Shown here in pieces: positions 41,696 to 54,624 of a DNA stretch of 64,000 bases; within the stretch, counting starts at the first letter, position 1, and each line of letters opens with the position of its first letter. The notes beneath the pieces are model-generated. The model did not search any database and was not told where the DNA came from. It saw only the letters and a list, made by a program, of their open reading frames with translations. The translations under genes were made by a program, and so were the position numbers. This DNA comes from Escherichia phage UE-S1: sequence record ON568341.1. One strand, written 5' to 3'.

Positions 41696-42272
41696 ATTAG
41701 TATATTACTATGGTAGTATGTCCAGTGGTAAAAGCACTCATCTTTTACAAAACGCATATAACCATAAGAAAAATGGAATGAAGGTAATTTACTTAACCAG
41801 TGCACTTGATGATCGTTATGGAACCGGAAAGATCACTTCAAGAATTGGTATTGAAGCTGATGCTGAAGTAATTCCAAAAAATGACATTAGTGTTCTTCTT
41901 AAAGTTAAAGAAACACTCAATAATGATGTTGACATTAACAGCATTTATGTTGATGAATGTCAATTTTTAAACAGAGAGCAGATTGACCATTTGGCTGATA
42001 TTGCCGATAATTATGGTGTTGATGTTTCCTGTTATGGTATTCGAACAGATTTTGAATCTAATCTATTTGAAGGTTCCCACCGACTTTTTGAAATAGCTGA
42101 TGATATACATGAACTTAAGAATGTGTGTGAGAATCAGAAGTGTGGGAAAGAAGCTACCATGAATGCACGTATTGTAGACAGTACTGAAAAAGTTTTCATT
42201 GGTGGTAACGAATCCTATAAAAGTTTGTGTAGAAAATGTTATAAAGAATATATGAGGAATAAAAATGGTTGA
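41688..42272 (+). CDS. tk: thymidine kinase
   Basis: P-loop YYGSMSSGKST; C-terminal Cys pairs (CENQKCG .. CRKCY). Confidence 0.85.
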   Translation: MGKLVYYYGSMSSGKSTHLLQNAYNHKKNGMKVIYLTSALDDRYGTGKITSRIGIEADAEVIPKNDISVLLKVKETLNNDVDINSIYVDECQFLNREQIDHLADIADNYGVDVSCYGIRTDFESNLFEGSHRLFEIADDIHELKNVCENQKCGKEATMNARIVDSTEKVFIGGNESYKSLCRKCYKEYMRNKNG

Positions 42273-42486
42273 TTCATTCATGAAACGAGTTTTAACAGAT
42301 GTTCTATCTGGATTTAAAAAAGCAACTAATATTATTTTCAGTTCAATTGTGATGGTTATTACTGTATTGACATTTTCTCTAGTGTTACATTTTGTGCCAT
42401 TCTGGTTAATCTTTATTGTATTAATTGGTCTTCTATGTGCACATGTTTATCATGTTTACAGTGAAATGTTGGATAATGACGATTAA
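42265..42486 (+). CDS. small membrane protein
   Basis: Two hydrophobic helices; terminator follows. Confidence 0.45.
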   Translation: MVDSFMKRVLTDVLSGFKKATNIIFSSIVMVITVLTFSLVLHFVPFWLIFIVLIGLLCAHVYHVYSEMLDNDD

Positions 42487-42494
42487 ATATATTT

Positions 42495-42518
42495 GACCCC
42501 ACTATGTGGGGTCTTTTT
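42495..42518 (+). terminator. intrinsic terminator
   Basis: GACCCCA / TGGGGTC stem then T5. Confidence 0.7.
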
Positions 42519-42531
42519 GAAGGTAAATTTT

Positions 42532-42975
42532 ATGTACATTGAAGTTGAAACATTCAAACGATTTATTGACATTTGTCGTCATACTAATCTTATATATTTG
42601 GGTCCAGGAGCAAACTTCAGAACTTTATCTTCAATTTTAGGATATACTGAACCATCATGCTTATATTGCGATGGGAACATGATTCATCTCACTGATGGTG
42701 ATTACAATGTTCAGTACATTTCTCAATGTGATTTGTATGTATTAAATACTCCAGAATATAATATTATTATTGAAGAACGTACTAAAGATAATTACCCAAC
42801 CCAATATGTAAGTTGGGATAGAACAGATTGCGTATATGCCACTGGTCCAGTACAGAAACCTATGAACTATCCTACTATTCATTTGAATGTTATCCATGAT
42901 GAATTGAAAGATTACTGTAACAGTATTTCAGATTCGGAAACAAAATACTTTCCTATTATATTTTATAAGGTTTAA
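42532..42975 (+). CDS. hypothetical protein
   Basis: Track ORF 42493-42975 trimmed to ATG 42532 because the terminator hairpin occupies 42495-42518. Confidence 0.45.
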   Translation: MYIEVETFKRFIDICRHTNLIYLGPGANFRTLSSILGYTEPSCLYCDGNMIHLTDGDYNVQYISQCDLYVLNTPEYNIIIEERTKDNYPTQYVSWDRTDCVYATGPVQKPMNYPTIHLNVIHDELKDYCNSISDSETKYFPIIFYKV

Positions 42976-42977
42976 TT

Positions 42978-43367
42978 ATGAGATGGCGTAAACGACATAC
43001 TAAAAGATTTAATACTATAATTAAGAAATATTATTCCCATAAGTTGGATTCAATGATTCTTCAATTAAGAAGTAGTATTTTTGACAGGCGTTATCCACAG
43101 TGTTTAGAATCGTACAGTAGGAGGCGTTCAAAGAATGAGTATCAAATATATCGTTATGATCTATCTGAATTATTTTTGAATACCCGTGTTTCTGTACCAA
43201 TTAGACTGTATTCAAGGTCTAAACGAAGTAGAATTCAAGATATTACATATGGATATCTCATGCTTGATATTGACGAATTGAATGAAAAAATGGATAGAAA
43301 CTTCAGTGCTTTATGTCTGGAAAACAATAATACCATTAAACATATCATAAAAAATTTGGATAAGTAG
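42978..43367 (+). CDS. hypothetical basic protein
   Basis: ORF in array. Confidence 0.45.
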   Translation: MRWRKRHTKRFNTIIKKYYSHKLDSMILQLRSSIFDRRYPQCLESYSRRRSKNEYQIYRYDLSELFLNTRVSVPIRLYSRSKRSRIQDITYGYLMLDIDELNEKMDRNFSALCLENNNTIKHIIKNLDK

Positions 43368-43384
43368 AAGTTTTAGTGATATAA

Positions 43385-43741
43385 TTGGAGATGAGTATGA
43401 AATATATAGATAAAGGTACAGTGGAGACACAGTACTGGAATATTCATATTGCGGGTGATATTAACACCGCAAGAGAGTACACAAGAAAGTTTGCGTTTAA
43501 AAATGGGTTTTGTGTACAATTGATTCCATGTGAATATATCTATACTGGTGGTCTTGAAAGTGGAATCTGTGCTCGTATTATTCAGTACCCACGCTTTCCT
43601 AAAGAAGAAGTGTACCTAAATCGAGATGTACTAAATTACGCTAAGGGATTAGCTGAAGAGTTGTGTCAGAAGAGTTTCACTATTGAGAGAAATAATGATA
43701 CAATTTATTATGAAAGTGATGACCCTTTACACAAGAAATAA
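43385..43741 (+). CDS. hypothetical protein
   Basis: GGAG RBS. Confidence 0.5.
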   Translation: MEMSMKYIDKGTVETQYWNIHIAGDINTAREYTRKFAFKNGFCVQLIPCEYIYTGGLESGICARIIQYPRFPKEEVYLNRDVLNYAKGLAEELCQKSFTIERNNDTIYYESDDPLHKK

Positions 43742-43752
43742 AAGGAAACTAT

Positions 43753-43884
43753 ATGAATGGACTAAAAAAGTTTGGTAAAGATTTTCTACAGTGCATCAAA
43801 TATACATATGATGCAAATCCAGAAATGACTGCGATTGTAGGTGTATTTATTGCATTAGTTGTATTAAGTTTCATTATGGGGTAA
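43753..43884 (+). CDS. small membrane protein (43 aa)
   Basis: Not on track; AAAGGAAA RBS; C-terminal TM segment TAIVGVFIALVVLSFIMG. Confidence 0.35.
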   Translation: MNGLKKFGKDFLQCIKYTYDANPEMTAIVGVFIALVVLSFIMG

Positions 43885-43887
43885 CAT

Positions 43888-44091
43888 ATGATTGAAATTA
43901 ATGCTGATATCTACTGTAGTGCTTTTCCAAATTACTTCATTTATGCATTAAGTACATTTGGTGAAACAGAAGGTGAGACGTTTGTTTTAGTAGATAATAC
44001 TACTTGGTATAAAACAAGTAATAAAATTTCTGAAGATGTTTTTGAAACATATGTTCGTATTGAAAATAAAAACATATATGTAAATTTATAG
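43888..44091 (+). CDS. small hypothetical protein
   Basis: ORF in array. Confidence 0.4.
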   Translation: MIEINADIYCSAFPNYFIYALSTFGETEGETFVLVDNTTWYKTSNKISEDVFETYVRIENKNIYVNL

Positions 44092-44098
44092 GTAAAAT

Positions 44099-44509
44099 AT
44101 GATTGAAATGGAAGGCATTCTGGTGTATGATCCAGATCGTGGAGCTATGAAAAAGAAGAAGGATTTCTGGTTAGTCCTACAACTTCCATTACAGTTGGTT
44201 AGATACTACCAGTACTTCATTCGAACTGACTTACATATTGACATTAAAGACCCACAATGGGGTGCACACGTCAGTATTGTTCGTGGGGAAGTGCCACCAA
44301 ATCCAGAGTACTGGAAGAAGTACCATGGTAAAAAAATCAAAATAAAATTTAATCCTGATATCATACAAGTGAAAGACAAAAAGAATCCAGGTTCGTTCTT
44401 TATTATAGAGTTTGATGATGAATTTATTGGTCATATTCGAAATGAATTAGGATTACAATCGAAGTTCTTACGTTATCACATTACAGTTGGTAGAACGTAC
44501 TACGATTAG
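44099..44509 (+). CDS. 2H-phosphoesterase-like protein
   Basis: Two H-x-[ST]-x motifs ~70 residues apart (HVSIV and HITVG), the arrangement typical of 2H phosphoesterases. Confidence 0.45.
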   Translation: MIEMEGILVYDPDRGAMKKKKDFWLVLQLPLQLVRYYQYFIRTDLHIDIKDPQWGAHVSIVRGEVPPNPEYWKKYHGKKIKIKFNPDIIQVKDKKNPGSFFIIEFDDEFIGHIRNELGLQSKFLRYHITVGRTYYD

Positions 44510-44527
44510 TTTAGTGGTAAATATATC

Positions 44528-44555
44528 TTGACTGAAAATAAAAATATGCTATAAT
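44528..44555 (+). promoter_or_regulatory. sigma70-like promoter with extended -10
   Basis: TTGACT - 16 nt - TATAAT preceded by TGC; upstream of lysozyme gene. Confidence 0.5.
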
Positions 44556-44673
44556 ACTTAAACACTTGAAAATAACGTTTTAGTACTGTAGAAAGTCCGA
44601 TGAGGCTTTTGCAAAATGGCCTCTTTGCCATCTTTGTGATTGCCCCGTCTTAACAATCAACAAAGGAGGCGTT

Positions 44674-45600
44674 TTGAAACAAGCGAAAAAAGCACTGAAA
44701 ACTAAAATTGCCGTAGGCGTATTAGTTTCATCAGCCCTATTCGCTGCTATTGGATTTTATGGTTTTTCACGACATGATCATGTACCATCATTAGACGAAA
44801 GTCAGGTGCATAATTTAAAACCACAGTTTACTCAAATTCAAAAGCAGGAACTTCCAGTGGTGTCAATACCGAAAGAAGTTTCAAGCAGCGAGAAACATTA
44901 TACGGTTCAACCAGGTGATAGTTATTATTCTATTGCTAAAAAGTTTAAGCCTAAAAATGTACAACTTGAAGAGTATGTTATTTTGTTGAAAAATATCAAT
45001 TTAAATGCTACACTTCATACTTCTCAGGGTATCTTTATCCCAACAAAAGAGGATTTGAAAAACATATTATTACCAGATGTGACTGTACTGTTTGATTATA
45101 CTGATCCTGAAATTGTCAATCACATCAAAGAAGCTGAAGGTTCAATTGAATTTCAGTCTAAAAATAAACGCCGTTTACTTGGTGGGCAAGTTGGTGTATC
45201 ATATCGTAATTCTAAATTTTATCCATATCGTGATGTAAAAGGTAACTACACAATTGGGTACGGACATTACCTTGGAAGGAATGCTTCAGATGCAAGTAAA
45301 TATCGCAATGGAATTACTAAATCGCAAGCACATGAACTTTTATTGTCTGATATGGAACGAATTAATAATGATTTAATTTTATTATTGAAGAAAAGAAATG
45401 CAACAAACCTTACGGTTGAACAACAAAGAATTTTATTTGAGATGGCATTTACTTTAGGTGTTGATAAATTAAACACTTTCAACAAACTATGGAAAAGTGT
45501 TGAAAATCAAAATTACAACAAGTTCAAAAAAGAAATTAAGAATTCTCTATGGTATCGACAAGTTGGAAACCGTGCAGAATTGTTGTTAAGTTCACTCTAA
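44674..45600 (+). CDS. membrane-anchored LysM-lysozyme (T4-lysozyme-fold; endolysin candidate)
   Basis: N-terminal TM/signal-anchor (IAVGVLVSSALFAAIGFYGF); LysM motif YTVQPGDSYYSIAKKF; C-terminal YTIGYGHYL .. GITK .. SLWYRQVGNRAELL resembles T4 lysozyme; TTG start after AAAGGAGG. Confidence 0.75.
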   Translation: MKQAKKALKTKIAVGVLVSSALFAAIGFYGFSRHDHVPSLDESQVHNLKPQFTQIQKQELPVVSIPKEVSSSEKHYTVQPGDSYYSIAKKFKPKNVQLEEYVILLKNINLNATLHTSQGIFIPTKEDLKNILLPDVTVLFDYTDPEIVNHIKEAEGSIEFQSKNKRRLLGGQVGVSYRNSKFYPYRDVKGNYTIGYGHYLGRNASDASKYRNGITKSQAHELLLSDMERINNDLILLLKKRNATNLTVEQQRILFEMAFTLGVDKLNTFNKLWKSVENQNYNKFKKEIKNSLWYRQVGNRAELLLSSL

Positions 45601-45617
45601 AAAAAGGAAGGTGAAAT

Positions 45618-45950
45618 ATGCTAAATCTAAATATTCAAGGCAACGTTGATATCACTCCAGCAATCCAAGATGCTATTTATAATGAAGCAAAAAGTCTGGA
45701 TAAGTACCGTACTTCTTCAGTACTAGACATTGGTGTTCATGTTAAGAAAGAGCATAAAACTCAATATGCTGTAACTTTAACTGCTGGTAGTAAATCAGTA
45801 ACTGCTGATGATGCTGATTTGTATAAAGCAATTGTTGAATCTTTTGATAAGATGGAAACTGTATTCAGTAAAGACAAAAGCATTAAATTACACCGCCGAA
45901 ACCATCCAGAACACCCCGTTCTTGATGATTTGACAGAAAACGAAGAGTAA
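45618..45950 (+). CDS. hypothetical protein
   Basis: AAGGAAGG RBS; terminator follows. Confidence 0.5.
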   Translation: MLNLNIQGNVDITPAIQDAIYNEAKSLDKYRTSSVLDIGVHVKKEHKTQYAVTLTAGSKSVTADDADLYKAIVESFDKMETVFSKDKSIKLHRRNHPEHPVLDDLTENEE

Positions 45951-45961
45951 GATAGACTAAA

Positions 45962-45990
45962 GGGACAGATTAATTCTGTCCCTTTTCTTA
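45962..45990 (+). terminator. intrinsic terminator
   Basis: GGGACAGA / TCTGTCCC stem then T-rich run. Confidence 0.8.
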
Positions 45991-46003
45991 TGGAGTTTTA
46001 ATT

Positions 46004-46399
46004 ATGAATTATTCCTGGATGGAAATTGTAAAATCTCTAATATCAACACATGATATGGACTTACCTGAACACTTAGTTATTAATAGATGGTACTATCCAT
46101 ATCCAGATAACCGTTGTGTTGGGATTGGATTTTTTATTAATGAAAAATCTCAATATATTGGATTAATTGAAGATTATACAAAAACCAACATTGCGTTCTC
46201 AATTGAGTTGAATGTAGATCACATAAAATACTACACTAATAAAATGGACGAAGACGATGGTGATGTTATAATTCCAGCAGAAATAGATGAAGCTTCATTT
46301 TTTCAGTTATCATTAATTCATGATGTATCTGATATTACTTATGATAATGTGAAAGACCTTTTTATATTGTACAATAAACTGTATAATTACTTTTTATAA
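46004..46399 (+). CDS. hypothetical protein
   Basis: ORF in array. Confidence 0.5.
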   Translation: MNYSWMEIVKSLISTHDMDLPEHLVINRWYYPYPDNRCVGIGFFINEKSQYIGLIEDYTKTNIAFSIELNVDHIKYYTNKMDEDDGDVIIPAEIDEASFFQLSLIHDVSDITYDNVKDLFILYNKLYNYFL

Positions 46400-46412
46400 C
46401 AGAGGAATTGTA

Positions 46413-46598
46413 ATGGAATATACCATATGTGTAATTGTATGTATCGTAGCCTTACTTGCAGGAGTTGGTGTGATGATTTACTGTGATGCGGAACCCAGTA
46501 CAGAAACAGGAACAACTATTGAACTTAAGCCTGGTGTTAAGGTAAATGATTCATATTGTTACGATCCACATAGTAATAAGTATGTGATTTGTCTATGA
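46413..46598 (+). CDS. small membrane protein
   Basis: N-terminal TM helix ICVIVCIVALLAGVGVMIY. Confidence 0.4.
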   Translation: MEYTICVIVCIVALLAGVGVMIYCDAEPSTETGTTIELKPGVKVNDSYCYDPHSNKYVICL

Positions 46599-47005
46599 AA
46601 AAGTTTGATATTAAACCTATGATCGATGCTATCGAAATTAAATTAAAAAATACTAAAAAGACAGATAGTACATGTTTGTTCTTTAGCTTAGATAAAATGT
46701 ATTATGAAACACACGTGTCAAGTTATGATAGAACAGGAAATCTCTTCATCCGTACTTATAACATATTTTATAGTGACGATGTTTTTATGATAGATATAAA
46801 TCTGGATGAAAGTATAGTGTTGATGTATATTGAGGATGTTCAATCAACAGAACAACGAAACGGGACTCTTCCTATTGCTGCTACAGAGGAAGAGTTTATG
46901 CAATATCAGTTCATTGATGATACCTTTGGCATTGACTTTGACACATATCAGAGTATAATGAGGGTATACGAACTTTATGAGGATTATGTGATTGGACGTT
47001 ACTAA
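46589..47005 (+). CDS. hypothetical protein, paralogue 1 of 2
   Basis: C-terminal QYQFIDDTFGIDFDTYQSIMRVYELY paralogous to next ORF. Confidence 0.5.
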   Translation: MSMKKFDIKPMIDAIEIKLKNTKKTDSTCLFFSLDKMYYETHVSSYDRTGNLFIRTYNIFYSDDVFMIDINLDESIVLMYIEDVQSTEQRNGTLPIAATEEEFMQYQFIDDTFGIDFDTYQSIMRVYELYEDYVIGRY

Positions 47006-47414
47006 AATTTCAAAATTTAATGAAACTTTAAAGTACTTTGCTGAACACGAAATCAGTACTGAAAGACGCGGTTTAATTTCATACAATCCACATCGTGTTC
47101 TGTACACTAATAATTTTCAGGGTACAGTTCGTATTAAATTTCGTAATGCACTCGAAGACAATGATGAATTGTTAATTTTACTACGAAAAAGTAAGATTGA
47201 ATTAACATACGTAACTCACGATATTGAAAGTGAGTTGATGTGGCACACGCTGTCAAAAAAAGAAGGTTCATTGCCAGTTGTTGATAATGGCCCTGAAACA
47301 CTTGATCAGTACATGTTCATTGATGATACATTTGGCATTGACTATTCTGCGTATCAATGTATACTAGCTATATACGAAAAATATTACGACCGTCTACGTG
47401 ACAGATTAATTTAA
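46992..47414 (+). CDS. hypothetical protein, paralogue 2 of 2
   Basis: C-terminal DQYMFIDDTFGIDYSAYQCILAIYEKY. Confidence 0.5.
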   Translation: MDVTKISKFNETLKYFAEHEISTERRGLISYNPHRVLYTNNFQGTVRIKFRNALEDNDELLILLRKSKIELTYVTHDIESELMWHTLSKKEGSLPVVDNGPETLDQYMFIDDTFGIDYSAYQCILAIYEKYYDRLRDRLI

Positions 47415-47425
47415 TTGGAGGCATT

Positions 47426-47548
47426 GTGATTACAGTATTAGAAGAGGATTGGGGTGTTTCAGAGCAAGGAACTGACGAATATGAATACCCAGAATATAAG
47501 ACTAAAGGCTTTTGGGAACGTTTTCGTGATTGGTTGATGGGGGAATAA
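47426..47548 (+). CDS. candidate small ORF (40 aa)
   Basis: Not on track; GTG start 5 nt after GGAGG; stop directly precedes CCA-enzyme ATG. Confidence 0.3.
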   Translation: MITVLEEDWGVSEQGTDEYEYPEYKTKGFWERFRDWLMGE

Positions 47549-47549
47549 T

Positions 47550-48662
47550 ATGAAAAAGTATTTGGTTGGCGGTTACGTCCGTGACCGTTTAATGGGTCTT
47601 CGTGCAAAAGACAAAGATTATGTCATTGTTGGTGCATCCGAATCTGATCTTAAGTACTTGCAAAGTATTGGCTATAAGCAAGTAGGTAAGGATTTCCCAG
47701 TATATCTAAGTCCAGAAGGTAATGAACACGCATTAGCCCGTACTGAGCGTAAAACTGGTACTGGATATGGTGGATTTGAAGTGGATACAAAAGGCGTAAC
47801 ACTAGAACAAGATTTGTATCGCCGTGACCTTACAATAAACAGTATCGCGTATGATCCAGTACTGCAAATTCACATCGACCCATACGGTGGAAAAGCTGAT
47901 ATCAAGAATAAAGTTCTACGCCATGTATCCGAACACTTCAAAGAAGATCCATTGCGTGTATTACGCCTGTGTCGCTTTGCAACGCGTTATTCTGATTTCT
48001 CTATACACGAGACTACTGAAGCACTTGTCATCGATATGGTAGCGTCTGGTGAGCTAAATCATCTTGTTCCAGACCGTGTTTTTGTGGAATTTGAAAAAGC
48101 ACTGTCGGAAGAAAAGCCAGCTAAGTTCCTTAAGACTCTAAGTCATTTTGGTTATTACGAAAATGTGTTTAAAACACCATTGACCAAAAAGAATTTGGAT
48201 CTCATTGATTATATTTCAGATAACTGTACTGATGTATATAAACCATATTTTCTGTGGTCTATTCTTCTAGAAAATGAAGAAGTAAATAATGACTCAGAAA
48301 TTAACGGTGCTATTAAAGTTCCTGTTAAATATGTCAAATTTAGTAATTACATCAAACTTTTCCGTGATGATATCAAAACATTCCGTAAAAAGACCCCAAA
48401 TGAAATGGGACAGTTATTACTGGATATGAATATTAAAAATAATGGAGGTGAAGAATTCCTTTATAAAGTGTTGGAATACTTCATTTTGCGAAAAGAAATT
48501 GATTTAGAACTTGAAGATCTAATTATTAAAGTTTATGATCGTTATACTGATGTTGAATTACCTGATATTCAGCAAATGGTTAAAGATGGTGAACTTGAAA
48601 CGTCAGAAATTCGTGATTTTGTTTGTGAACTCCGATGTGAAGCAATCAAGAAACTATTCTAA
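47550..48662 (+). CDS. tRNA nucleotidyltransferase (CCA-adding enzyme)
   Basis: N-terminal GGYVRDRLMG and KDKDYV match the Pol-beta head domain of CCA-adding enzymes / poly(A) polymerases. Confidence 0.7.
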   Translation: MKKYLVGGYVRDRLMGLRAKDKDYVIVGASESDLKYLQSIGYKQVGKDFPVYLSPEGNEHALARTERKTGTGYGGFEVDTKGVTLEQDLYRRDLTINSIAYDPVLQIHIDPYGGKADIKNKVLRHVSEHFKEDPLRVLRLCRFATRYSDFSIHETTEALVIDMVASGELNHLVPDRVFVEFEKALSEEKPAKFLKTLSHFGYYENVFKTPLTKKNLDLIDYISDNCTDVYKPYFLWSILLENEEVNNDSEINGAIKVPVKYVKFSNYIKLFRDDIKTFRKKTPNEMGQLLLDMNIKNNGGEEFLYKVLEYFILRKEIDLELEDLIIKVYDRYTDVELPDIQQMVKDGELETSEIRDFVCELRCEAIKKLF

Positions 48663-48770
48663 AAAACAGTGGGACAGAATACCAATAACTGATATAATTA
48701 TTAGTATCTGAACATCGATTGATGAAAAAGAGATAAGATATGCGTTATAGTTGTGGTATAATATTTTATC

Positions 48771-49172
48771 GTGATGGTCAGATACTTATCGGACATACAA
48801 CACGGACAGAAACATTGGGATTTACCTAAAGGGAAAGCAGAGGGTGAAGAAACATTCAAAGAAGCTGCTGTGCGTGAATGTTTTGAAGAGACAGGATACG
48901 AAATCGATGAAGATGATCTTCTGTTTCTTGGTGATGTATCCTATAGAAAGGGAAAAAGGTTGGTTCTTTTCTTTTATACTGCTAAAGACAAGCCTGTACC
49001 AGATGAATTAGTATGTAAAAGTACATATACTAATAGATATGGTAAGAGTCATCCAGAATTGGATAAGTTCATGTACATTGATGTGCGAGAATGTCAAAAG
49101 TATTTGACTGAACGAATGTGTAACAGTATAATAAAAGCGGTTAAAGCTTTTCAAAGAAATAAAAGGAAATAA
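48771..49172 (+). CDS. Nudix hydrolase (N-terminal strand encoded in a different frame; possible frameshift)
   Basis: Canonical Nudix box GKAEGEETFKEAAVRECFEETGYEI; a 29-codon ORF at 48740-48829 in another frame encodes MRYSCGIIFYRDGQILIGHTTRT, the expected Nudix N-terminal strand. Confidence 0.55.
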   Translation: MMVRYLSDIQHGQKHWDLPKGKAEGEETFKEAAVRECFEETGYEIDEDDLLFLGDVSYRKGKRLVLFFYTAKDKPVPDELVCKSTYTNRYGKSHPELDKFMYIDVRECQKYLTERMCNSIIKAVKAFQRNKRK

Positions 49173-49173
49173 T

Positions 49174-49422
49174 ATGAAAGTTAAAATTTATGGTCGCACG
49201 ACTGGTTGTAAATTTTGCGATACTGCAAAAGCTGTATGTGAGCAAAATAAATTTGACATGGAATTTGTAGATATTGTTACTGAAGGTATTGATGGTGCAA
49301 AGCTATCAGAAATTTGTGGTGAGCCAGTACGTCAGGTTCCTCAAATTTTTGTAAATGACATTTATGTACCTGGGGGTTGTACTGGATTTATTGAAGGACT
49401 TAAAGAAGGTCGTTGGAAATAA
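49174..49422 (+). CDS. nrdC: glutaredoxin/thioredoxin (NrdC-like)
   Basis: KIYGRTTGCKFCDTAK CxxC active site; overall resemblance to T4 NrdC (KVYG..C.YCDNAK .. PQ.F). Confidence 0.65.
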   Translation: MKVKIYGRTTGCKFCDTAKAVCEQNKFDMEFVDIVTEGIDGAKLSEICGEPVRQVPQIFVNDIYVPGGCTGFIEGLKEGRWK

Positions 49423-49664
49423 TGGATATTGAAAAAGTATCATCTCGTGCAAAACAACTAGCTGACACGTTGGGAGTAGAGTTCAAAATTCCTGATATCA
49501 CCATCGCTAAAGAAAAAGCACAGAATAAAATTAATAAGATGAAAGAATATCTATCTAAACAGGAGCAATATGATTCTGCTGTAGAATTTATTATGAAATC
49601 ATTTAGTAAAGATGATATTTTGGCATTCATCAAATATGTGAAGGTTTCTGGTAACCCTAAATAA
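49422..49664 (+). CDS. hypothetical protein
   Basis: Start overlaps upstream stop (TAATG). Confidence 0.45.
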   Translation: MDIEKVSSRAKQLADTLGVEFKIPDITIAKEKAQNKINKMKEYLSKQEQYDSAVEFIMKSFSKDDILAFIKYVKVSGNPK

Positions 49665-49694
49665 CAATGAAGAACAAAAGTTCTTCTTAACAAT

Positions 49695-49949
49695 TTGGGA
49701 GATACTATTATGCTCAGTTTTCGTGAACAATTAGCAAAAGGTCAAATTAAGACTCAAGCTCAAACTAATATTCCTAAAAAATCTGCATTTTTGGGAACAA
49801 TTACGGAAGATGGATATTGTGACTATGATGCACCAGAAGATTCATGGTATATTACAAAAGACACAAAACGTAGTAATAGACTTCACAAAAGTACAATAGC
49901 TAGAAAGCATCGAAAAGAATTGAAAAAAATTCGTTTCGGTGAAGAATAA
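49695..49949 (+). CDS. small basic protein
   Basis: GGGAGA RBS; terminator follows. Confidence 0.45.
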   Translation: MGDTIMLSFREQLAKGQIKTQAQTNIPKKSAFLGTITEDGYCDYDAPEDSWYITKDTKRSNRLHKSTIARKHRKELKKIRFGEE

Positions 49950-49963
49950 TAAAATATAAATTA

Positions 49964-49993
49964 AGGACTCTGTGTTTGGAGTCCTTTCTTTTC
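49964..49993 (+). terminator. intrinsic terminator
   Basis: AGGACTC / GAGTCCT stem then T-rich run. Confidence 0.7.
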
Positions 49994-50003
49994 GGAGAAC
50001 ATA

Positions 50004-50480
50004 ATGATACATGAGCACCGAGGTAATCTGTTTGAATTGTTCAGTACTGTAACCGATGATGAAACTGCATTGCATATTATTGCACATGGTTGCAACGCCC
50101 AAGGTAAAATGGGTTCTGGTTTTGCAAAAGAACTAAGAAATCGTTACCCAATGGCATATGATGATTATAAAGCATATGAAAAGGAAATGGGATTTCTAAG
50201 AACTGGAAAAATTGCATATTCTTCGGTAAGTGATGATTTACTTATTGCAAACTGTATTACCCAACAATTCTACGGGAATGATGGTAAAAAATATGTAAGT
50301 TATGATGCAATTGATGATATTTTCAAAGAGATAAATTACTTATGTAATATTGAACGTAGTGTTTATGTACACTTTCCGAAAATTGGAGCCGATTTGGGTG
50401 GTGGTAACTGGAACGTTATCAAAGAAATTATTGATCACAGACTGGTCAATGCAGAAAAACACTTATATATTCTAAAATAA
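50004..50480 (+). CDS. macro-domain protein (ADP-ribose binding/processing)
   Basis: HGCNAQGKMGSGFAKEL and HFPKIGADLGGGNW resemble macro-domain Gly-rich loops. Confidence 0.6.
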   Translation: MIHEHRGNLFELFSTVTDDETALHIIAHGCNAQGKMGSGFAKELRNRYPMAYDDYKAYEKEMGFLRTGKIAYSSVSDDLLIANCITQQFYGNDGKKYVSYDAIDDIFKEINYLCNIERSVYVHFPKIGADLGGGNWNVIKEIIDHRLVNAEKHLYILK

Positions 50481-50491
50481 TCAAAAAGGAC

Positions 50492-50809
50492 TTGACAAAA
50501 ATGACTATGACCGTTAAACTACTAAACATCAATAACATTGGCCCAGTACTAGCTGTTCTTCAAACTGATTCTGCTGAAGCAGTGGTAGTTAACTACCCAG
50601 CACAATTAGGTACTGATGAAAATGGTGAAATCATTCTTCGTGATTATCTAGAGTTTGTTAGTATGGAGAAAAATGTTATTTTTTATAAATCCAACATTAT
50701 TAGTGTTAGTGATGCAAACCCTGCATTAGTTGATGCTTATGTTGATGCTATTAAAGCAATCGAAGACACTCCAAAAGTTTTTGTTCCTGAGAATAAAATT
50801 ATTCTATAA
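50492..50809 (+). CDS. hypothetical protein
   Basis: ORF in array. Confidence 0.5.
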   Translation: MTKMTMTVKLLNINNIGPVLAVLQTDSAEAVVVNYPAQLGTDENGEIILRDYLEFVSMEKNVIFYKSNIISVSDANPALVDAYVDAIKAIEDTPKVFVPENKIIL

Positions 50810-50823
50810 TAGAGGTATATAAA

Positions 50824-51201
50824 ATGGCTGTTAATGACGTTAAAGTAAAAACTATTCAAGCTATCGTAGTACTGAAAGATTCAACTCCATCTCCAAAAGA
50901 ATTGGTAATGGCTGGGATGACAATGCTTCATCAATACAATCCTGAATCACCAAATTATGTTCAAGAATACGAAGCAAAGCAGTTTAAAGAACATTGGCAG
51001 TCATGGATTAAAGATAATGAAATGGAGCAAGTTGTTTATGCTGCTGATGACATTTTCGAATTAGAACAAATTGAATATCTAGCAGGTCAACAATCTGTGC
51101 CGTTGAGTATCTTCGGTAATGGTGAAGAAGTCTTAGTTCTAGGACCATTCACTGCCGATGTAATTACACACTTACTAAGTAATTGTGAAAAAATTGGCTA
51201 A
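50824..51201 (+). CDS. hypothetical protein
   Basis: ORF in array. Confidence 0.5.
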   Translation: MAVNDVKVKTIQAIVVLKDSTPSPKELVMAGMTMLHQYNPESPNYVQEYEAKQFKEHWQSWIKDNEMEQVVYAADDIFELEQIEYLAGQQSVPLSIFGNGEEVLVLGPFTADVITHLLSNCEKIG

Positions 51202-51412
51202 ATGCTTAAAATTATCAGGATACCGAAACAATACATTGATGTTAAATAATATAAAGTATTGGGTTGATCCATACTTTAATAATTCATTGTTAATGTACAG
51301 AGATAAAAGTCGAGATTTATACGGAATATATGTTACACAGTTAATATATGCTATAGATTCAGAACATTTTACTCCGTTGGTATACCTGTACTGTTTGTAT
51401 AATTCAGAATAA
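51185..51412 (+). CDS. small hypothetical protein
   Basis: ORF overlapping upstream stop. Confidence 0.35.
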   Translation: MKKLAKCLKLSGYRNNTLMLNNIKYWVDPYFNNSLLMYRDKSRDLYGIYVTQLIYAIDSEHFTPLVYLYCLYNSE

Positions 51413-51417
51413 GTATT

Positions 51418-51465
51418 AGCACCTCTAAATAATGTATATATAAACATTAATGAGGTGCTTTTTTA
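51418..51465 (+). terminator. long-loop hairpin with T-run
   Basis: AGCACCTC / GAGGTGCT stem, 26-nt AT-rich loop, T6 running into the next ATG. Confidence 0.4.
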
Positions 51466-52256
51466 TGTCTTACAATTATATGGGTGGAAATCCAGATGCT
51501 CCTAACTTTGATCATCGTGAAAAACTGAAAGATGTTATCACTCAAATGTTGGGAGCAGGTGCAGTTGAGGTAGAAATTACTGATGGTCAATTAGAAATTG
51601 CAATTGATAATGCTGTATCAAATTACAGAGCGTGGAGTTCTGCTTCTAAAGAAGAAGCTTTTTTAAATATGAAATTTTATGATTCACAATCTGTATATAT
51701 GCTCCCAACTGAAGTTGAAATAGTTAAAAAGATTTACCGCTATGGTAATGGTTATTTAAGTTCTGGGTCAGGTAACAGCGTAGACCCATTCTCATTGGCA
51801 TTCACGAATACATATCTATTGACGTCGGCTAGGAATGCAGGTGGATATGATCTAACAACTTATGATTTCAGCTTTCAATTTCAAGAATTGGTTGGTCGTA
51901 TGTTTGGACGTGAAATTATATTCCAATTTAACCCAATGACTAAGAAACTTATTATTGATCGTGATATTCGCGGTACAGAAGAAGTATTACTACATGTGTA
52001 TCATAATATTCCAGAACCATTATTGTTCCAACGTCAGCAAAGCTACCCGTGGCTTCGTGATTGGGCATTGTCTGAAGCAATGATTATGCTTGGTCGTAAC
52101 CGTGCTAAGTTTGCTAGTTTGCCTGGACCACAAGGGACATTTTCAATGGATGGTGATACATTAAGAAATGAAGGTATCCAATTACAAGAACAACTAAAAG
52201 AACAGTTGAAGCGATATAAAGATGGTGGAGAACCACTTGGAATGATTATCGGGTAA
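51465..52256 (+). CDS. hypothetical protein (possible virion/tail-associated)
   Basis: Track ORF 51450-52256 trimmed to MSYNYMGG Met; sits upstream of the tail module. Confidence 0.45.
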   Translation: MSYNYMGGNPDAPNFDHREKLKDVITQMLGAGAVEVEITDGQLEIAIDNAVSNYRAWSSASKEEAFLNMKFYDSQSVYMLPTEVEIVKKIYRYGNGYLSSGSGNSVDPFSLAFTNTYLLTSARNAGGYDLTTYDFSFQFQELVGRMFGREIIFQFNPMTKKLIIDRDIRGTEEVLLHVYHNIPEPLLFQRQQSYPWLRDWALSEAMIMLGRNRAKFASLPGPQGTFSMDGDTLRNEGIQLQEQLKEQLKRYKDGGEPLGMIIG

Positions 52257-52284
52257 ATTTTAAACATTAAAAAAAGAGTACTAT

Positions 52285-54279
52285 ATGAATAATGAAGAAT
52301 TGAAAAAACTTTTGTTGTCAAAACATATTAATTCATGGGTACATTTATACAAAGGGGACTCTCATGTGAGAGATCTCCTTTCTGTTTTTGGAATAGAACC
52401 AAAAACTGATTTCGAAATATATAAAATTCTATATATGTTCATGAATGATATAACAACAGTTCCAACTGCATATTGTGGAAAAAAAGCAAGATACAAAAAT
52501 TTTCAAAAAGGATTTTATAAATTTTGTGATGATTATGTAATTAATAAGAAAAATACGTGTAATGTATGCCATGAGATGTATTATAAAAATCGAACTAATA
52601 AAACAAAATCAACATTAATGAATATGTATGGTGTATCTAATGTATCCCAGATCCAAGAAGTAAAACAAAAGAAAGAAAAAACTAACATTGAACGTTATGG
52701 TGTCTCTACTAATTTACAGACAACAGAATCTAAAGAGAAAATCAAACAAACTAATATAGAGCGATATGGATGTGAATATCCAAATCAAAACCCTGAAATA
52801 TTCAATAAAGTAAAAGAAACAAATTTAAAAAAGTATGGTGTTGAATTCCAAAGTAAAAGAAATGAAGTAAAAGAGAAAGCCAAAAATACAAATATATTAA
52901 GATACGGAACTGAGTATTCTTTATCATCACCGACTATTCGCGAAAAAATCAATAAAACAAATCTTGAACGATATGGTGGAAACCCACTATCAAATAAAAT
53001 TATCCAAGATAAAATAAAAAACACCAACACATTGAAGTATAATTCATTTTATCCAATGAGCAATATGAGTATTCAGGAAAAAGTTCATAATACCAATGTG
53101 GAACGATATGGTGTAAAATACCCAGCCCAAAATAATTCTATCATTGAAAAAATGAAAGAAACCACAAAAAATAGATATGGTTCAGAACACTACTCACAAA
53201 CAGATGAGTATAAAGATAAAATATCACTTGCCCGTCTAGACGAAAGATATAATATAATTGTTGCAAATATTGATAAAAACTATATTCCATTATTTGAAAA
53301 TACCGATCTGATTATGAAAGTTAATACAGACGAATACCCATTTTGGTGTGAGTATTGTGATGATTTGTTTTATAGTAAGTATAAAAATCATAAAGTGAAA
53401 TGTAAGTGTCAGAAAAATAATGGTCATTCCTTGAAAGAGAAAGATTTAGTTGATTATATAAAATCATTAATACCAAATACCGAAATCATAGAAAATGACC
53501 GTTCAGTACTGAAACCTAAAGAGTTGGATGTGTATATCCCTGACCGAAATCTAGCTATTGAATTTAATGGTGTGTATTGGCATAATGATGAAAATGTCAA
53601 TTCTACTAAACACCAAGATAAGGTATTGGATTGTTTAAAACATGGGGTGAATCTTATTCACATTTATGAAGATGAATGGGATAACCCATTAACAAATAAA
53701 ATAATCAAGGAACGTTTAAAGAATAAACTTCTAGTGTCAAATAGAATTTATGCTAGAAAATGTACTGTTAGAAATATAGACAAACAAGTAAGTAATATGT
53801 TTACTAAATCACACCATATTCAAGGTGTTGCACAAGCAAGTATTCACATTGGACTTTACTATGGAAGTGAGTTGGTTGCAGTTATGACCTTTGGTAAATC
53901 AAGGTTTGATAAAAACTATGAATATGAATTAATCAGATACTGTTCATCCGGTACAGTTGTTGGTGGTGCATCAAAATTACTAAAATATTTTGAAACAGTA
54001 TATAATCCACAATCATTATTGACATATGCGGATATGGATTGGAGTAGTGGTGATCTTTATACAGTTCTAGGCTTTGAGTTTGATAGTTATACAGAACCAG
54101 GATATTTTTATTATGACCCACAAACACATGAGAGGATTTCACGTCAGAAATGTCAAAAACATAAATTGGTCAAGAAAGGTTATGATATTAACTTAACCGA
54201 GAGACAAATTTGCTGTGATGTGTTGGGATATTATAAGATTTACAACTCTGGTAATATAAAATACACAAAAAAATATTAA
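52285..54279 (+). CDS. free-standing homing-endonuclease-like protein with tandem peptide repeats and a Vsr/PD-(D/E)xK-like nuclease core
   Basis: Eight or nine tandem ~23-29-aa repeats with core TN(I/L/V)ERYG; nuclease-like block ELDVYIPDRNLAIEFNGVYWH; extra C-terminal domain (GGASKLL). Confidence 0.6.
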   Translation: MNNEELKKLLLSKHINSWVHLYKGDSHVRDLLSVFGIEPKTDFEIYKILYMFMNDITTVPTAYCGKKARYKNFQKGFYKFCDDYVINKKNTCNVCHEMYYKNRTNKTKSTLMNMYGVSNVSQIQEVKQKKEKTNIERYGVSTNLQTTESKEKIKQTNIERYGCEYPNQNPEIFNKVKETNLKKYGVEFQSKRNEVKEKAKNTNILRYGTEYSLSSPTIREKINKTNLERYGGNPLSNKIIQDKIKNTNTLKYNSFYPMSNMSIQEKVHNTNVERYGVKYPAQNNSIIEKMKETTKNRYGSEHYSQTDEYKDKISLARLDERYNIIVANIDKNYIPLFENTDLIMKVNTDEYPFWCEYCDDLFYSKYKNHKVKCKCQKNNGHSLKEKDLVDYIKSLIPNTEIIENDRSVLKPKELDVYIPDRNLAIEFNGVYWHNDENVNSTKHQDKVLDCLKHGVNLIHIYEDEWDNPLTNKIIKERLKNKLLVSNRIYARKCTVRNIDKQVSNMFTKSHHIQGVAQASIHIGLYYGSELVAVMTFGKSRFDKNYEYELIRYCSSGTVVGGASKLLKYFETVYNPQSLLTYADMDWSSGDLYTVLGFEFDSYTEPGYFYYDPQTHERISRQKCQKHKLVKKGYDINLTERQICCDVLGYYKIYNSGNIKYTKKY

Positions 54280-54286
54280 TAAAAAA

Positions 54287-54310
54287 GACTCCTATGTGGG
54301 GTCTTTTTTC
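54287..54310 (+). terminator. intrinsic terminator
   Basis: GACTCC / GGGGTC stem (one G-U) then T6; loop and 3' arm nearly identical to terminator at 42495. Confidence 0.6.
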
Positions 54311-54354
54311 TTTATCTGTGATATAATGATAATATTAATAGAAGAGAATATAAC

Positions 54355-54624
54355 ATGAATGATAATATAAATGTAATGTATAACAGATATCGTTGCGGGA
54401 AACCAACGCTTGATTATGAATCTACGGAAAAGTATTGGAAATTTATAAAAGATTCAATTGTTGATGTATTCGGTCGAGATCGTATAAATGCGTGGGCCAG
54501 TATATATCGTGATGAGCATGGAGAAACATTTTTCATTACTTATGTTTCTGTTTATAATAGTAACGAATCAATAGTTAAATTGCTTCAATGTTTGGTGGGG
54601 AAGGATTTTGTTGTATTGGAATAA
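54355..54624 (+). CDS. hypothetical protein
   Basis: ORF in array. Confidence 0.45.
   Translation: MNDNINVMYNRYRCGKPTLDYESTEKYWKFIKDSIVDVFGRDRINAWASIYRDEHGETFFITYVSVYNSNESIVKLLQCLVGKDFVVLE

Follow-up and report, generated by a model that had tools for sequence, protein, structure and literature searches.

Two look-alike intrinsic terminators in an Asteriusvirus-like jumbo coliphage are most likely independent, positionally conserved elements

Promoter-early stem-loops (PeSLs) of T4-type phages are repeated intergenic terminator hairpins that mediate modular gene shuffling. They occur in ~50 copies per genome with ~100 bp conserved, interleave a strong sigma70 promoter with the stem-loop, and bracket ORFan indels (Arbiol et al. 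2010, PMC2839356; Comeau et al. 2014, PMC4122927). The intrinsic terminators of enterobacteria and their phages are simpler, with a GC-rich stem of 6–10 bp, a loop of 3–5 nt and an immediate U-run, positioned on the coding strand right after stop codons; their orthologs keep structure rather than sequence, and an optional upstream A-tract yields a bidirectional-type hairpin.

We analyzed 64,000 nucleotides of Escherichia phage UE-S1 (ON568341.1; hereafter the window), which belongs to an Asteriusvirus-like jumbo coliphage (identity 89.7% to ph0011, 88.5% to TH47, and about 88% to 121Q). Two hairpins, T1 at 42495 and T2 at 54287, share all these traits of intrinsic terminators, the A-tract being found at T2, and show no essential difference from them; their function is predicted. 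PeSLs are the described system that matches the idea, raised in an earlier note, that recurring terminators mark recombination hotspots or the boundaries of mobile gene cassettes. T2 and the promoter-like element downstream of it superficially resemble a terminator/promoter composite, but T1 and T2 lack the copy number, the ~100 bp of conservation, the interleaved promoter, and the two-sided ORFan flanking of PeSLs. T1 and T2 are very probably independent, positionally conserved Rho-independent terminators on a single coding strand, made identical over 17 nt by mutation, with an endonuclease insertion as a separate event.

T1, T2 and their orthologs

41688–42272, + strand: thymidine kinase gene (Pfam TK, 8.7e-49), itself an indel relative to 121Q and SD-15
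42495–42518, + strand: T1, intrinsic terminator; 8-bp perfect stem GACCCCAC/GTGGGGTC, loop UAU, then U5
54281–54309, + strand: T2, intrinsic terminator of the neck-gene unit; GACTCC/GGGGTC stem with one G.U pair, loop UAUGU, A6/U6 extension
54319–54327, + strand: putative extended -10 promoter-like element TGaTATAAT, 9 nt after T2

The T1 hairpin (42495–42513, GACCCCAC-tat-GTGGGGTC) is followed directly by T5, the whole reading GACCCCACtatGTGGGGTC plus T5, and folds strongly (-14.6 kcal/mol, z = -4.3). It starts 8 nt past the stop codon of a 73-aa ORF (42265–42486), which appears to be of a small membrane type, and the ATG of the ORF at 42532–42975 comes 13 nt after it. No promoter was found between T1 and this ATG, so T1 is probably a partial stop or a 3'-end stabilizer; with the Shine-Dalgarno sequence and ATG of the next gene within 13 nt, it is likely a leaky terminator. 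GACCTCAC-tat-GTGGGGTC is the sequence of every ortholog compared (ph0011, 121Q, TH47, Ecwhy_1, SD-15_S21); T1 varies at a single C/T position only.

The T2 core (54287–54303) reads GACTCC-tatgt-GGGGTC followed by T6 (as a whole, GACTCCtatgtGGGGTC plus T6), and A6/T6 lengthens the helix to 54281–54309, again with a strong fold (-14.5 kcal/mol, z = -5.4). An orthologous hairpin lies directly 3' of the neck gene in 121Q, Ecwhy_1, SD-15_S21, and OEQX01000033, and phages Muenster and Munch have annotated terminators downstream of this gene. In relatives, T2 reads GACTCCtatatGG(A/G)GTC or carries another loop: tatatGGAGTC in 121Q, SD-15, OEQX, and JACCDR, tatatGGGGTC in Ecwhy_1 and TH47, and AtttttttGGGGTC in ph0011, versus tatgtGGGGTC in the window. 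T2 would end the neck-gene unit, and the predicted promoter next to it lies upstream of the ORF at 54355–54624 and the dNMP kinase gene. The block TGTGATATAATGATAATATTAAT at the promoter-like site is kept in 121Q, TH47, Ecwhy_1, and SD-15 and reads GGTGATATAATG in ph0011; inspection of the sequence revealed no -35 hexamer.

In both T1 and T2, a GC-rich RNA hairpin followed by a U-run would release RNA polymerase; we infer termination itself from these features. The window contains 17–18 terminators. In ph0011 and 121Q, each junction concerned carries an ortholog (18/18), and the changes fall in loops or alter stems by wobble or compensatory change.

Extent and origin of the sequence likeness

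The near-identity of loop and 3' arm reported for the hairpins at 42495 and 54287 was borne out: the exact 17-mer CTATGTGGGGTCTTTTT is the longest string common to T1 and T2, and CTATGTGGGGTC occurs exactly twice in the window. A comparison of the T1 and T2 flanks found no similarity beyond the hairpins. Across the complete 121Q genome the T1 15-mer has a single occurrence, and further copies of this pair, or of a second terminator family proposed alongside it, were absent from ~316 kb of TH47 (90% of the genome), 100 kb of ph0011, and 75 kb of 121Q.

Whether the likeness exceeds chance depends on the null chosen. Of 64-kb sequences simulated with a Markov model, 45% contain some repeated 17-mer, and five unrelated repeats of this kind are present in the window itself. 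Structure-preserving shuffles of the 17–18 window terminators did not once attain the T1/T2 likeness: the longest common string averages 8.8, with P(>=14) = 0.0015 and P < 0.001 for the 12/12 identity of T1 and T2 before the T-run. This improbability, together with the fact that both T2 substitutions went towards the T1 sequence, makes pure coincidence uncomfortable. We regard the 17-base likeness as largely coincidental. In the genus ancestor, T1 and T2 would already have been moderately alike, with 9–10 of 12 bases matching before the U-run and GAC..GTC stems in both. The 17-nt identity would then have arisen in this genome alone via two A>G transitions in T2: GGAGTC>GGGGTC, common to the window, TH47, ph0011, and Ecwhy_1, and the loop change TATAT>TATGT, confined to the window.

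Short-patch ectopic gene conversion could also have copied part of T1 (TATGTGGGGTC) onto T2 in this phage's lineage, making the hairpins occasional sites of non-allelic exchange without gene movement. Both derived T2 states agree with T1 in register, and the resulting identity is improbable under shuffling, but we consider conversion unlikely: the two changes came stepwise (Ecwhy_1, TH47, and ph0011 already have GGGGTC, and TATGT is seen here only), each is a simple A>G transition, the T2 5' arm is unconverted (GACTCC versus GACCCCAC), leaving the G.U pair, and a homology tract of 10–12 nt is very short for recombination. Less probable still is convergence under selection, with the loop and 3' arm serving as a specific recognition element (such as the target of an RNA-binding protein or nuclease of the phage) or as a highly efficient terminator. 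T1 is nearly invariant in six genomes while adjoining intergenic bases vary, and T2 has drifted towards it; against this, T2 varies among healthy relatives in both loop (tatat, tatgt, attttttt) and arm (GGAGTC/GGGGTC), the motif is found at no other site in the ~316 kb of TH47, and no Rfam match was found.

The second family had been proposed for hairpins at 22244, 25523, and 51418.

22244–22269, + strand: ordinary intrinsic terminator, AAAGCACC-uuagu-GGUGCUUU plus U-run; -12.2 kcal/mol
25522–25562, + strand: ordinary intrinsic terminator plus TATAAATA; stem-loop 25522–25544, AAAAGCACCC-guc-GGGUGCUUUU

The hairpins exist, but their kinship does not hold up, as those at 22244 and 25522 resemble each other about as much as chance predicts (they share at most 10 consecutive bases; null maximum ~9). 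The 51418 element was rejected as a member: its loop measures 26 nt, the AAGCACC 5' context is missing, and it belongs to another class of element. The group would thus comprise two unrelated ordinary terminators and a neck-gene leader hairpin. The first terminator (as DNA, AAAGCACC-ttagt-GGTGCTTT) lies after the ORF at 21956–22141 and before an nrdD-like gene; in ph0011 the ortholog (GCACCCCatagTGGGTGT) does not preserve the family arm. The second (AAAAGCACCC-gtc-GGGTGCTTTT) is followed after 10 nt by an exact TATAAATA (25555–25562), 31 nt before the ATG of an 899-aa ORF.

Indel edges and a homing-endonuclease insertion next to T2

The motifs are not enriched at cassette boundaries, which the earlier note had suggested they may mark. 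A terminator is found no more than 60 nt from 5/19 indel edges (P = 0.21; ~17% of gene junctions carry one), and one of the five sites singled out in that note is at an indel, equal to the base rate. Edges next to terminators include 6707, 8007, 34980, and 39269. T1 is not at a breakpoint: the thymidine kinase indel (alignment gap 41691|42253 versus 121Q) ends 220 nt upstream, its edges overlapping adjoining ORFs away from T1. A recently exchanged patch (42593–43000) has both edges inside genes.

51465–52256, + strand: neck gene (head-tail adaptor, T4 gp13-like; ortholog annotation)
52285–54279, + strand: predicted free-standing homing-endonuclease gene, 664 aa (phrog_3339, phrog_559, Pfam DUF7487)

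The ORF at 52285–54279 matches phrog_3339 'homing endonuclease' (5.7e-166), the HNH endonuclease phrog_559 (8e-80), and, weakly, the I-Bth0305I-type mobile intron protein 3r3p, and has an odd composition (GC 0.297, AT skew 0.185). As expected of the free-standing homing endonucleases to which it is predicted to belong, it is intergenic between conserved genes, present or absent among near-identical relatives, and recurrent at the neck-to-dNMP-kinase locus in another genus. The cassette (~52257–54280) lies between the neck stop codon (52254–52256) and T2, with TAAATT at its left limit and AAAAGACTCC at its right. The neck region is present in 32 Escherichia phage records, and among Escherichia phage records the gene is shared with the window by TH47 and ph0011 only; it was not found at this locus in 121Q-type relatives. 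T2 begins 2 nt past its 3' end; a hairpin looked for at the left end of the cassette was not found. In relatives that lack the endonuclease gene, T2 is already in place as the neck-gene terminator, so it was not brought in by the cassette. The endonuclease gene would have been inserted into the A-rich stretch that separates T2 from the neck stop codon, independently of the T1/T2 likeness, and would borrow T2 as its own terminator, so that T2 now borders a mobile cassette. RaK2, K64-1, and Muenster have a 55%-identical homolog at the same locus, but on the downstream side of the neck terminator; the insertion point thus differs, being upstream of that terminator in the window. A second window-specific endonuclease insertion (2425–3495) has no terminator at either edge.

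A PeSL-like cassette does recur in this clade: GGTTGACttcgGTCAGCC followed by a T-run and GCTATAAT, with the -35 in the stem and the -10 after the T-run, is present in 11 copies in TH47 and also in 121Q, RaK2, and CBB; a search of the window did not find it. That T1 and T2 are copies of such a mobile terminator/promoter cassette, with recombination between copies shuffling adjoining or intervening genes, is very improbable despite this occurrence, the promoter-like TGaTATAAT after T2, the inserted gene at its border, and the several other indel edges that adjoin terminators. There are just two copies, and their homology ends at 17 nt; T1 is without a promoter; the endonuclease cassette is flanked by a hairpin at one end alone; the 44 records compared are all collinear, with no rearrangement in any relative that ends in T1 or T2; and terminators show no significant association with indel edges. 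T1 and T2 do not constitute a family of mobile or recombination-prone repeats; what stands of the hotspot proposal is that the hairpins are of terminator type and that T2 lies beside a mobile gene, while the idea that recurrence as such is a marker is not supported.

Leader hairpins of the neck and tail-sheath genes

51418–51464, + strand: neck-gene leader hairpin; 5' arm AGCACCTC (51418–51425), 3' arm GAGGTGCT (51452–51459)
55296–55361, + strand: tail-sheath leader hairpin; anti-SD arm AGATCCTTCAA, SD arm TTGGAGGAT (55351–55359); -14 to -21 kcal/mol

Leaders of this type have precedents in T4 genes e, soc, 49, and I-TevI (PMC3014915). The neck leader (tAGCACCTC-26 nt-GAGGTGCT-T6) has an inner helix within its loop, a late-promoter-like TAAATA between the arms (51426–51431), a Shine-Dalgarno sequence in its 3' arm, and a U-run to 51464. 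Across five lineages (15 phages), its folding energy ranges from -17 to -25 kcal/mol (z = -4.3 in the window). Covariation analysis gave 86% of cells paired and 3 pairs with compensatory change, a score reached by 1/500 shuffles, with few independent lineages behind the result. RNAalifold, which is sequence-based, recovered just 3 pairs, an effect of register shifts that MAFFT introduces between clades. The true start of the neck gene is the ATG at 51465, with the SD GAGG 9 nt upstream; an in-frame ATG at 51450, inside the hairpin, was rejected in view of the ortholog annotation and this SD.

The tail-sheath leader shares this design, with ATAAATA at 55306–55312, then a loop, and the ATG at 55366, and is kept in ph0011, 121Q, Ecwhy_1, SD-15, RaK2, Munch, GAP32, and Yen9-03. 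An ATAAATA late-promoter motif and a gp55-like sigma factor have been described in this clade (PMC5259590). Both ATAAATA (13 occurrences, 46.5 expected) and TATAAATA (3 occurrences, 13 expected) are scarcer than expected.

Like the T4 leaders, both hairpins pair the Shine-Dalgarno sequence with an upstream arm and carry a T4-late-promoter-like (T)ATAAATA/TAAATA between the arms; they differ in belonging to neck and sheath genes of a RaK2-like jumbo phage clade and in a 3' arm that also precedes a U-run. Because of this U-run, the same leader hairpin could terminate read-through, although the neck leader may act on translation only, its 26-nt loop being long by terminator standards. Early or middle transcripts that read through into the neck leader are predicted to be terminated and/or translationally silent. 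With the late-promoter-like motif between the arms, late transcripts, predicted to start inside the loop, would lack the inhibitory 5' arm and be translated.

The terminators T1 and T2

The window shares ~90% identity with three Asteriusvirus jumbo coliphages, ph0011, TH47, and 121Q, whose genomes measure ~350 kb, and nearly all of its genes lie on the + strand. An earlier note had singled out two hairpins, T1 and T2, for an almost identical loop and 3' arm, grouped three others (22244, 25522, 51418) as a second family, and proposed that recurring terminators may mark recombination hotspots or the boundaries of mobile cassettes.

Hairpins of the window
42495-42513, + strand: T1 hairpin, GACCCCAC-tat-GTGGGGTC then T5; 8 bp, 6 of them GC pairs
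54287-54303, + strand: T2 hairpin, GACTCC-tatgt-GGGGTC then T6; A6/T6 extends the helix to 54281-54309
22244: ordinary terminator, AAAGCACC-ttagt-GGTGCTTT
25522: ordinary terminator, AAAAGCACCC-gtc-GGGTGCTTTT
51418: neck leader hairpin, AGCACCTC-26 nt-GAGGTGCT-T6
55296-55361, + strand: tail-sheath leader hairpin, AGATCCTTCAA, ATAAATA, loop, Shine-Dalgarno (SD) arm TTGGAGGAT, ATG 55366

As RNA, T1 and T2 each fold into a single strong hairpin, of -14.6 kcal/mol (z = -4.3) and -14.5 kcal/mol (z = -5.4), respectively, in which a GC-rich stem is followed immediately by a U-run (U5 in T1, U6 in T2). T1 begins 8 nt past the stop codon at 42486, and the A-tract of T2 begins 2 nt past the stop codon at 54279; both are intergenic and flanked exclusively by + strand ORFs. 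For each of the 18 terminators called in the window, ph0011 and 121Q have an ortholog at the corresponding junction; changes mostly affect loop bases and are otherwise wobble or compensatory in the stems. Structure is thus kept despite sequence drift for T1, T2, and the 16 others, with C-G/U.G variation in the T1 stem, and loop changes and a stem alternating between A-U and G.U in T2. Fold energies, U-runs, post-stop location, and ortholog structure bear out the terminator nature of the hairpins, and we assign T1 and T2 as predicted intrinsic terminators. A sigma70 promoter overlapping T1 (TTGACC at 42493) was rejected, as no -10 lies at 16-19 nt.

The shared loop and 3' arm are confirmed: CTATGTGGGGTC occurs exactly twice in the window, and the longest string common to T1 and T2 is the 17-mer CTATGTGGGGTCTTTTT. 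This match was set against two nulls, first-order Markov sequences of window composition and shuffled terminators, the latter made by shuffling stem pairs and loop bases of 17 curated window terminators. A repeated 17-mer arises in 45% of the Markov sequences, and five such unrelated repeats are found in the window; as a bare repeat, the 17-mer is unremarkable. Shuffled terminators have a mean maximal common string of 8.8; strings of 14 or more came up in 0.15% of trials, and 17 in none. For T1 and T2, which are identical at 12 of 12 bases ahead of the T-run, this terminator comparison gives P < 0.001. The match stands out among window terminators only. The 22244/25522 pair has 10 bases in common, the value of the best random pair under the same shuffling.

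Orthologs place the match in time. T1 reads GACCTCAC-tat-GTGGGGTC in ph0011, 121Q, TH47, Ecwhy_1, and SD-15_S21, from which the window differs by a single T>C that makes the stem perfect. T2 varies: 121Q, SD-15_S21, and two metagenome contigs have GACTCC-tatat-GGAGTC, Ecwhy_1 and TH47 share -tatat-GGGGTC, ph0011 carries -attttttt-GGGGTC, and the window alone has -tatgt-GGGGTC. Aligned at the T-run, T1 and T2 agree at 9 of 12 positions in ph0011, 10 in 121Q (counted by hand, the G.U pair of T2 there using the first T of the T-run), 11 in TH47, and 12 in the window. The genus-level resemblance is borderline, with P(max >= 10) of about 0.04-0.12, and two A>G transitions gained at different depths of the tree made the match perfect. 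The flanks of T1 and T2 are unrelated, and identity is confined to 17 nt. The window-specific perfection of the match is a residual oddity. That a short conversion patch made it is improbable. Less probable still, the perfection could be the trace of ectopic conversion from one hairpin to another, between ordinary terminators 11.8 kb apart. If so, jumbo-phage terminators would occasionally pair and swap short patches, a low-frequency version of the recombination mediated by promoter-early stem-loops (PeSLs, mobile terminator/promoter cassettes of T4-type phages), and the 11.8-kb block between T1 and T2 could in principle be excised or duplicated.

Beyond the window, the motifs were counted in the relatives 121Q, ph0011, and TH47. 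The T1 15-mer (TATGTGGGGTCTTTT) has one copy in the complete 121Q genome, and its 34-35 further matches in IMG/VR are singletons in unrelated contigs, at chance level. Degenerate hairpin patterns match orthologous sites only in 100 kb of ph0011 and 75 kb of 121Q; across 316 kb (90%) of TH47, GACYYC..GRRGTCTTT and GGGGTCTTTT find T1 and T2 only, and GCACC..GGTGCTTT finds three orthologous sites only. The genome-wide search proposed in the earlier note therefore returned no extra copies of T1/T2 or of the second family over these stretches, and neither terminator 'family' is a dispersed repeat. IMG/VR matches to AAGCACC-N3-9-GGTGCTTT, a 15-base pattern with seven gap lengths, are uninformative on enrichment because hundreds are expected by chance. 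Scans with the neck protein gave only 121Q in IMG/VR and three loci in metagenomes, so relatives were drawn from the GenBank phage collection. No Rfam family was found in the window.

Gene-content breakpoints and the insert beside T2

T1 is preceded by a 73-aa ORF (phrog_22328) and followed by a 147-aa ORF (phrog_35643). The thymidine kinase gene upstream is missing in 121Q and SD-15, and the edges of this indel overlap flanking ORFs and stop 220 nt short of T1. In the gene after T1, a patch at 42593-43000 is 97-99% identical to TH47 and Ecwhy_1 in surroundings of ~80% identity, and the 121Q and SD-15 alleles of this gene reach only 48-70% identity. The patch begins and ends within coding sequence (about 80 nt past T1, 25 nt into the gene that follows) and has the look of a recent allelic exchange confined to one gene. 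T1 itself is no junction.

Alignment of the window with ph0011 and 121Q contains 11 indel/replacement events with 19 edges, five of which (6707, 8007, 34980, 39269, 54278) lie within 60 nt of a terminator. With terminators at ~17% of the ~100 gene junctions, this gives P = 0.21, and one of the five sites listed in the earlier note borders an indel, which is the base rate; the correlation with breakpoints suggested there shows no enrichment.

Block 8008-10755, which has a shorter replacement in 121Q, includes the sole large - strand gene (8282-10183), encoding an Ig-domain structural protein with six tandem 252-264-nt repeats; it converges on a bidirectional terminator at 7982-8005, AAAAGGAGCC-acat-GGCTCCTTTT. 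Block 17413-19005 spans 1.6 kb in the window versus 0.5-0.6 kb in ph0011 and 121Q and contains a 323-aa ORF (17981-18952) without any PHROG match. The ORF before it (16803-17972) is a composite of several PHROG families and has a MazG-like part.

T2 lies downstream of a 664-aa ORF and upstream of a small ORF and the genes for dNMP kinase and tail sheath. The order in 121Q is neck gene (gp548), an 11-nt spacer, the T2 ortholog, a conserved TGTGATATAATG block, then gp549; an insertion of ~2.0 kb separates the neck stop codon from the T2 hairpin in the window, TH47, and ph0011. The insert is one ORF, 52285-54279, with profile matches to phrog_3339 'homing endonuclease' (5.7e-166), phrog_559 (8e-80), and Pfam DUF7487. 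Its tblastn relatives annotated as homing endonucleases come from RaK2, K64-1, LIMEstone1 (F-LimIII), and Campylobacter phages (Hef), and it matches the I-Bth0305I-type mobile intron protein 3r3p weakly (E = 0.018). The composition is deviant (GC 0.297, AT skew 0.185). Among 32 Escherichia phage records holding the neck region, the insert is found at >90% identity in TH47 and ph0011 only, and it is absent from 121Q, Ecwhy_1, SD-15, and others, a presence/absence polymorphism at one intergenic locus with clean junctions (TAAATT on the left, AAAAGACTCC on the right). In Klebsiella Alcyoneusviruses, the interval from the neck gene to dNMP kinase also holds a 55%-identical homolog, placed there downstream of the neck terminator. 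Family homology with a nuclease domain, and locus polymorphism with clean junctions, point to a free-standing homing endonuclease gene with putative cleavage and homing activity.

A second endonuclease ORF (2425-3495, 356 aa; phrog_681 'endonuclease', 4.4e-45) sits between the DNA ligase and metallophosphoesterase genes, is absent from ph0011 and 121Q, and has no terminator at either edge. NCBIfam returned nothing for either window endonuclease.

The earlier note's idea of a terminator at a mobile-gene boundary holds in that T2 borders the homing-endonuclease insert, and fails in that the hairpin is resident in relatives that lack it. Arrival of T2 with the endonuclease gene was rejected, since the same hairpin and downstream promoter are present in relatives without the gene; nor was the GGGGTC state of T2 brought by the insert, because Ecwhy_1 has GGGGTC without the endonuclease gene. 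The insert would now use T2, the resident terminator, and its left edge carries no hairpin. The promoter-like part of T2 is a downstream extended -10 only, and the exact string TGTGATATAATG is unique, with near matches at chance level; it is therefore not a repeated promoter. The insert accounts for the gene-content difference at the neck locus, which helps in the annotation of RaK2-like jumbo phages. RaK2 (L169 3440-3490, GTACTAATA..TATTAGTAC) and Munch (L171 1340-1370, GGAAGTACTT..) have neck-gene terminators that show no sequence relation to T2, and both have AGTACT in the stem.

A recurring terminator cassette elsewhere in these genomes

PeSLs occur in tens of copies in plastic regions, whereas T1 and T2 are two sites only in the window and over the stretches of TH47, ph0011, and 121Q counted above. 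The ~100-bp composite conservation and interleaved sigma70 promoter of PeSLs likewise differ from the 17 nt shared by T1 and T2, the first of which is without a promoter. PeSL copies stand on both sides of indels, with crossovers within the motif; the endonuclease insert has a right hairpin only, and the exchanges adjacent to T1 end inside genes (42593, about 43000). A PeSL-like role for T1/T2 is highly doubtful.

As a positive control for a recurring family, all TH47 terminator candidates were clustered. The family recovered (GGTTGACttcgGTCAGCC) reads GG(G)TTGAC-ttcg-GTCAGCC(C), a T-run, then GCTATAAT-TATTTCATCAA, and has 11 copies on one strand between ~97 and 147 kb, 0.6-4 kb apart.

GGTTGACttcgGTCAGCC cassettes in TH47 (L185-L186)
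Positions: ~97.0, 122.9, 124.3, 125.1, 125.7, 127.3, 131.4, 132.0, 134.9, 138.5, 147.3 kb

TTGACT in the stem and loop corresponds to a -35 box, and TATAAT, 18 nt on and past the T-run, to a -10 box; the stem-loop is thus enclosed by the two boxes, an arrangement described among PeSLs of T4-type phages (PMC2839356, PMC4122927). The composite is also present in 121Q (L262), RaK2 (L190/L195/L224/L267), CBB (L206), and other large phage contigs, and was not found in the window with up to 3 mismatches allowed. Its sequence marks it as a genuine PeSL-like family of predicted terminator/promoter cassettes across genera, to which T1 and T2 bear no resemblance.

The elements of the window are all of known kinds: the terminators are intrinsic, the inserted gene is of the free-standing homing endonuclease type, and the leader is predicted to act on translation as in T4. 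What stands of the earlier interpretation is that the hairpins are terminators, one of which (T2) borders a mobile gene. The sequence recurrence of T1 and T2 is neither a repeat family nor a recombination or cassette-boundary marker. In itself the T1/T2 finding is of little consequence. A striking 17-nt terminator match is possible without common ancestry or mobility, and a single comparative alignment suffices to separate such a match from a true repeat family. The GGTTGACttcgGTCAGCC family is the right place to test the recombination idea.

A different recurrent element of the window is the palindrome AGTACT, with 102 occurrences versus about 22-25 expected. Its extension CAGTACTG is the most over-represented 8-mer of the window (26 versus 0.6-1.5 expected), and the longer form TTCAGTACTGAA, allowing at most one mismatch, occurs 16 times versus 0.33 expected.

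CAGTACTG sites in the window
Sites 1-13: 529, 1257, 1965, 3578, 6189, 6984, 10916, 14689, 16721, 18024, 19303, 20893, 23654
Sites 14-26: 25188, 31601, 36972, 39413, 40145, 42179, 43430, 47054, 47857, 50042, 53504, 60012, 63312

AGTACT is found in all three codon phases, each exceeding its dicodon expectation (AGT-ACT, 46 versus 11), and the excess is therefore a DNA-level signal. It extends to ph0011, 121Q, TH47, RaK2, and Muenster and, in short pieces, to Munch, GAP32, CBB, and Yen9-03; no mention of it was found in the jumbo-phage literature examined. The word could be a protein-binding or modification site.

Leader hairpins of the neck and sheath genes

The second family dissolves on inspection. 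Hairpins are present at 22244, 25522, and 51418, as the earlier note had it; the likeness of the first two is at chance level, and the third is the leader of the neck gene. The three have GGTGCTTTT in common largely because the 51418 arm is an SD sequence, and this arm is no longer present in the ph0011 ortholog of the 22244 terminator. An exact TATAAATA lies 10 nt past the 25522 terminator, ahead of an 899-aa ORF.

In the neck leader (51418-51459), the 3' arm GAGGTGCT (51452-51459) contains the neck-gene SD, an arrangement also found in leaders of the T4 gene e type. The neck gene starts at ATG 51465; the in-frame ATG 51450 falls within the helix, and the downstream ATG is favoured because the SD spacing is conserved. 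The mechanical ORF list and some records (121Q gp548, L002 13540; Kaldavass, L177 278) use the in-hairpin ATG, at least 15 nt too far upstream.

The same layout recurs ahead of the neck gene in 15 phages of Asteriusvirus, Alcyoneusvirus, Mimasvirus, Eneladusvirus, and the Munch group: a C-rich arm is followed at +0 to +2 by TAAATA, then by a loop of 24-31 nt and an SD arm 10-13 nt before the ATG. Folds are of -17 to -25 kcal/mol, and the 3' arm has GAGG or GGGG. The arms vary by clade (AGCACCTC/GAGGTGCT, GCACCCC/GGGGTGC, ATACCCC/GGGGTAT). RNAalifold on a MAFFT alignment gave only 3 pairs because clades were shifted by one column, and the helix was assessed instead by per-sequence folds and an arm-anchored alignment. 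In the latter, 86% of cells pair and three of the eight pairs are changed on both sides, and covariation is 0.243 versus 0.130 in shuffles (1/500), over few lineages; slid controls are 36-56% paired with zero compensatory pairs. Compensatory change is thus present in the neck helix.

TAAATA after the 5' arm is invariant in 15 of 15 phages, with the full TATAAATA in Munch, and its late-promoter role is putative. It matches ATAAATA, the predicted late-promoter motif in CBB and GAP32; both phages encode a gp55-like sigma factor (PMC5259590). On both strands of the window, ATAAATA (13 versus 46.5 +/- 7.6 expected) and TATAAATA (3 versus 13 +/- 3.6 expected) are strongly avoided, as would be expected of a promoter word. 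The few late-promoter-like copies on the + strand are mostly ahead of structural genes (25556, 55306, 58377, 59217, 62156, 62683), and a - strand copy at 10220 precedes the only large - strand gene.

The tail sheath leader has the same design, with the SD TTGGAGGAT pairing with AGATCCTTCAA; it is conserved in five lineages and kept in RaK2, Munch, GAP32, and Yen9-03. The closest precedent for both leaders is provided by the T4 genes e, soc, 49, and I-TevI, in which early read-through transcripts sequester the ribosome-binding site and internal late promoters yield translatable mRNAs (PMC3014915). By analogy, the neck and sheath hairpins would insulate late structural genes from upstream early/middle transcription; transcripts begun at a late promoter between the arms would lack the 5' arm, and termination may also occur at the U-run that follows the neck hairpin. 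For five lineages, the two leaders point to a predicted temporal control of translation like that of T4, and they should aid the annotation of RaK2-like phages.
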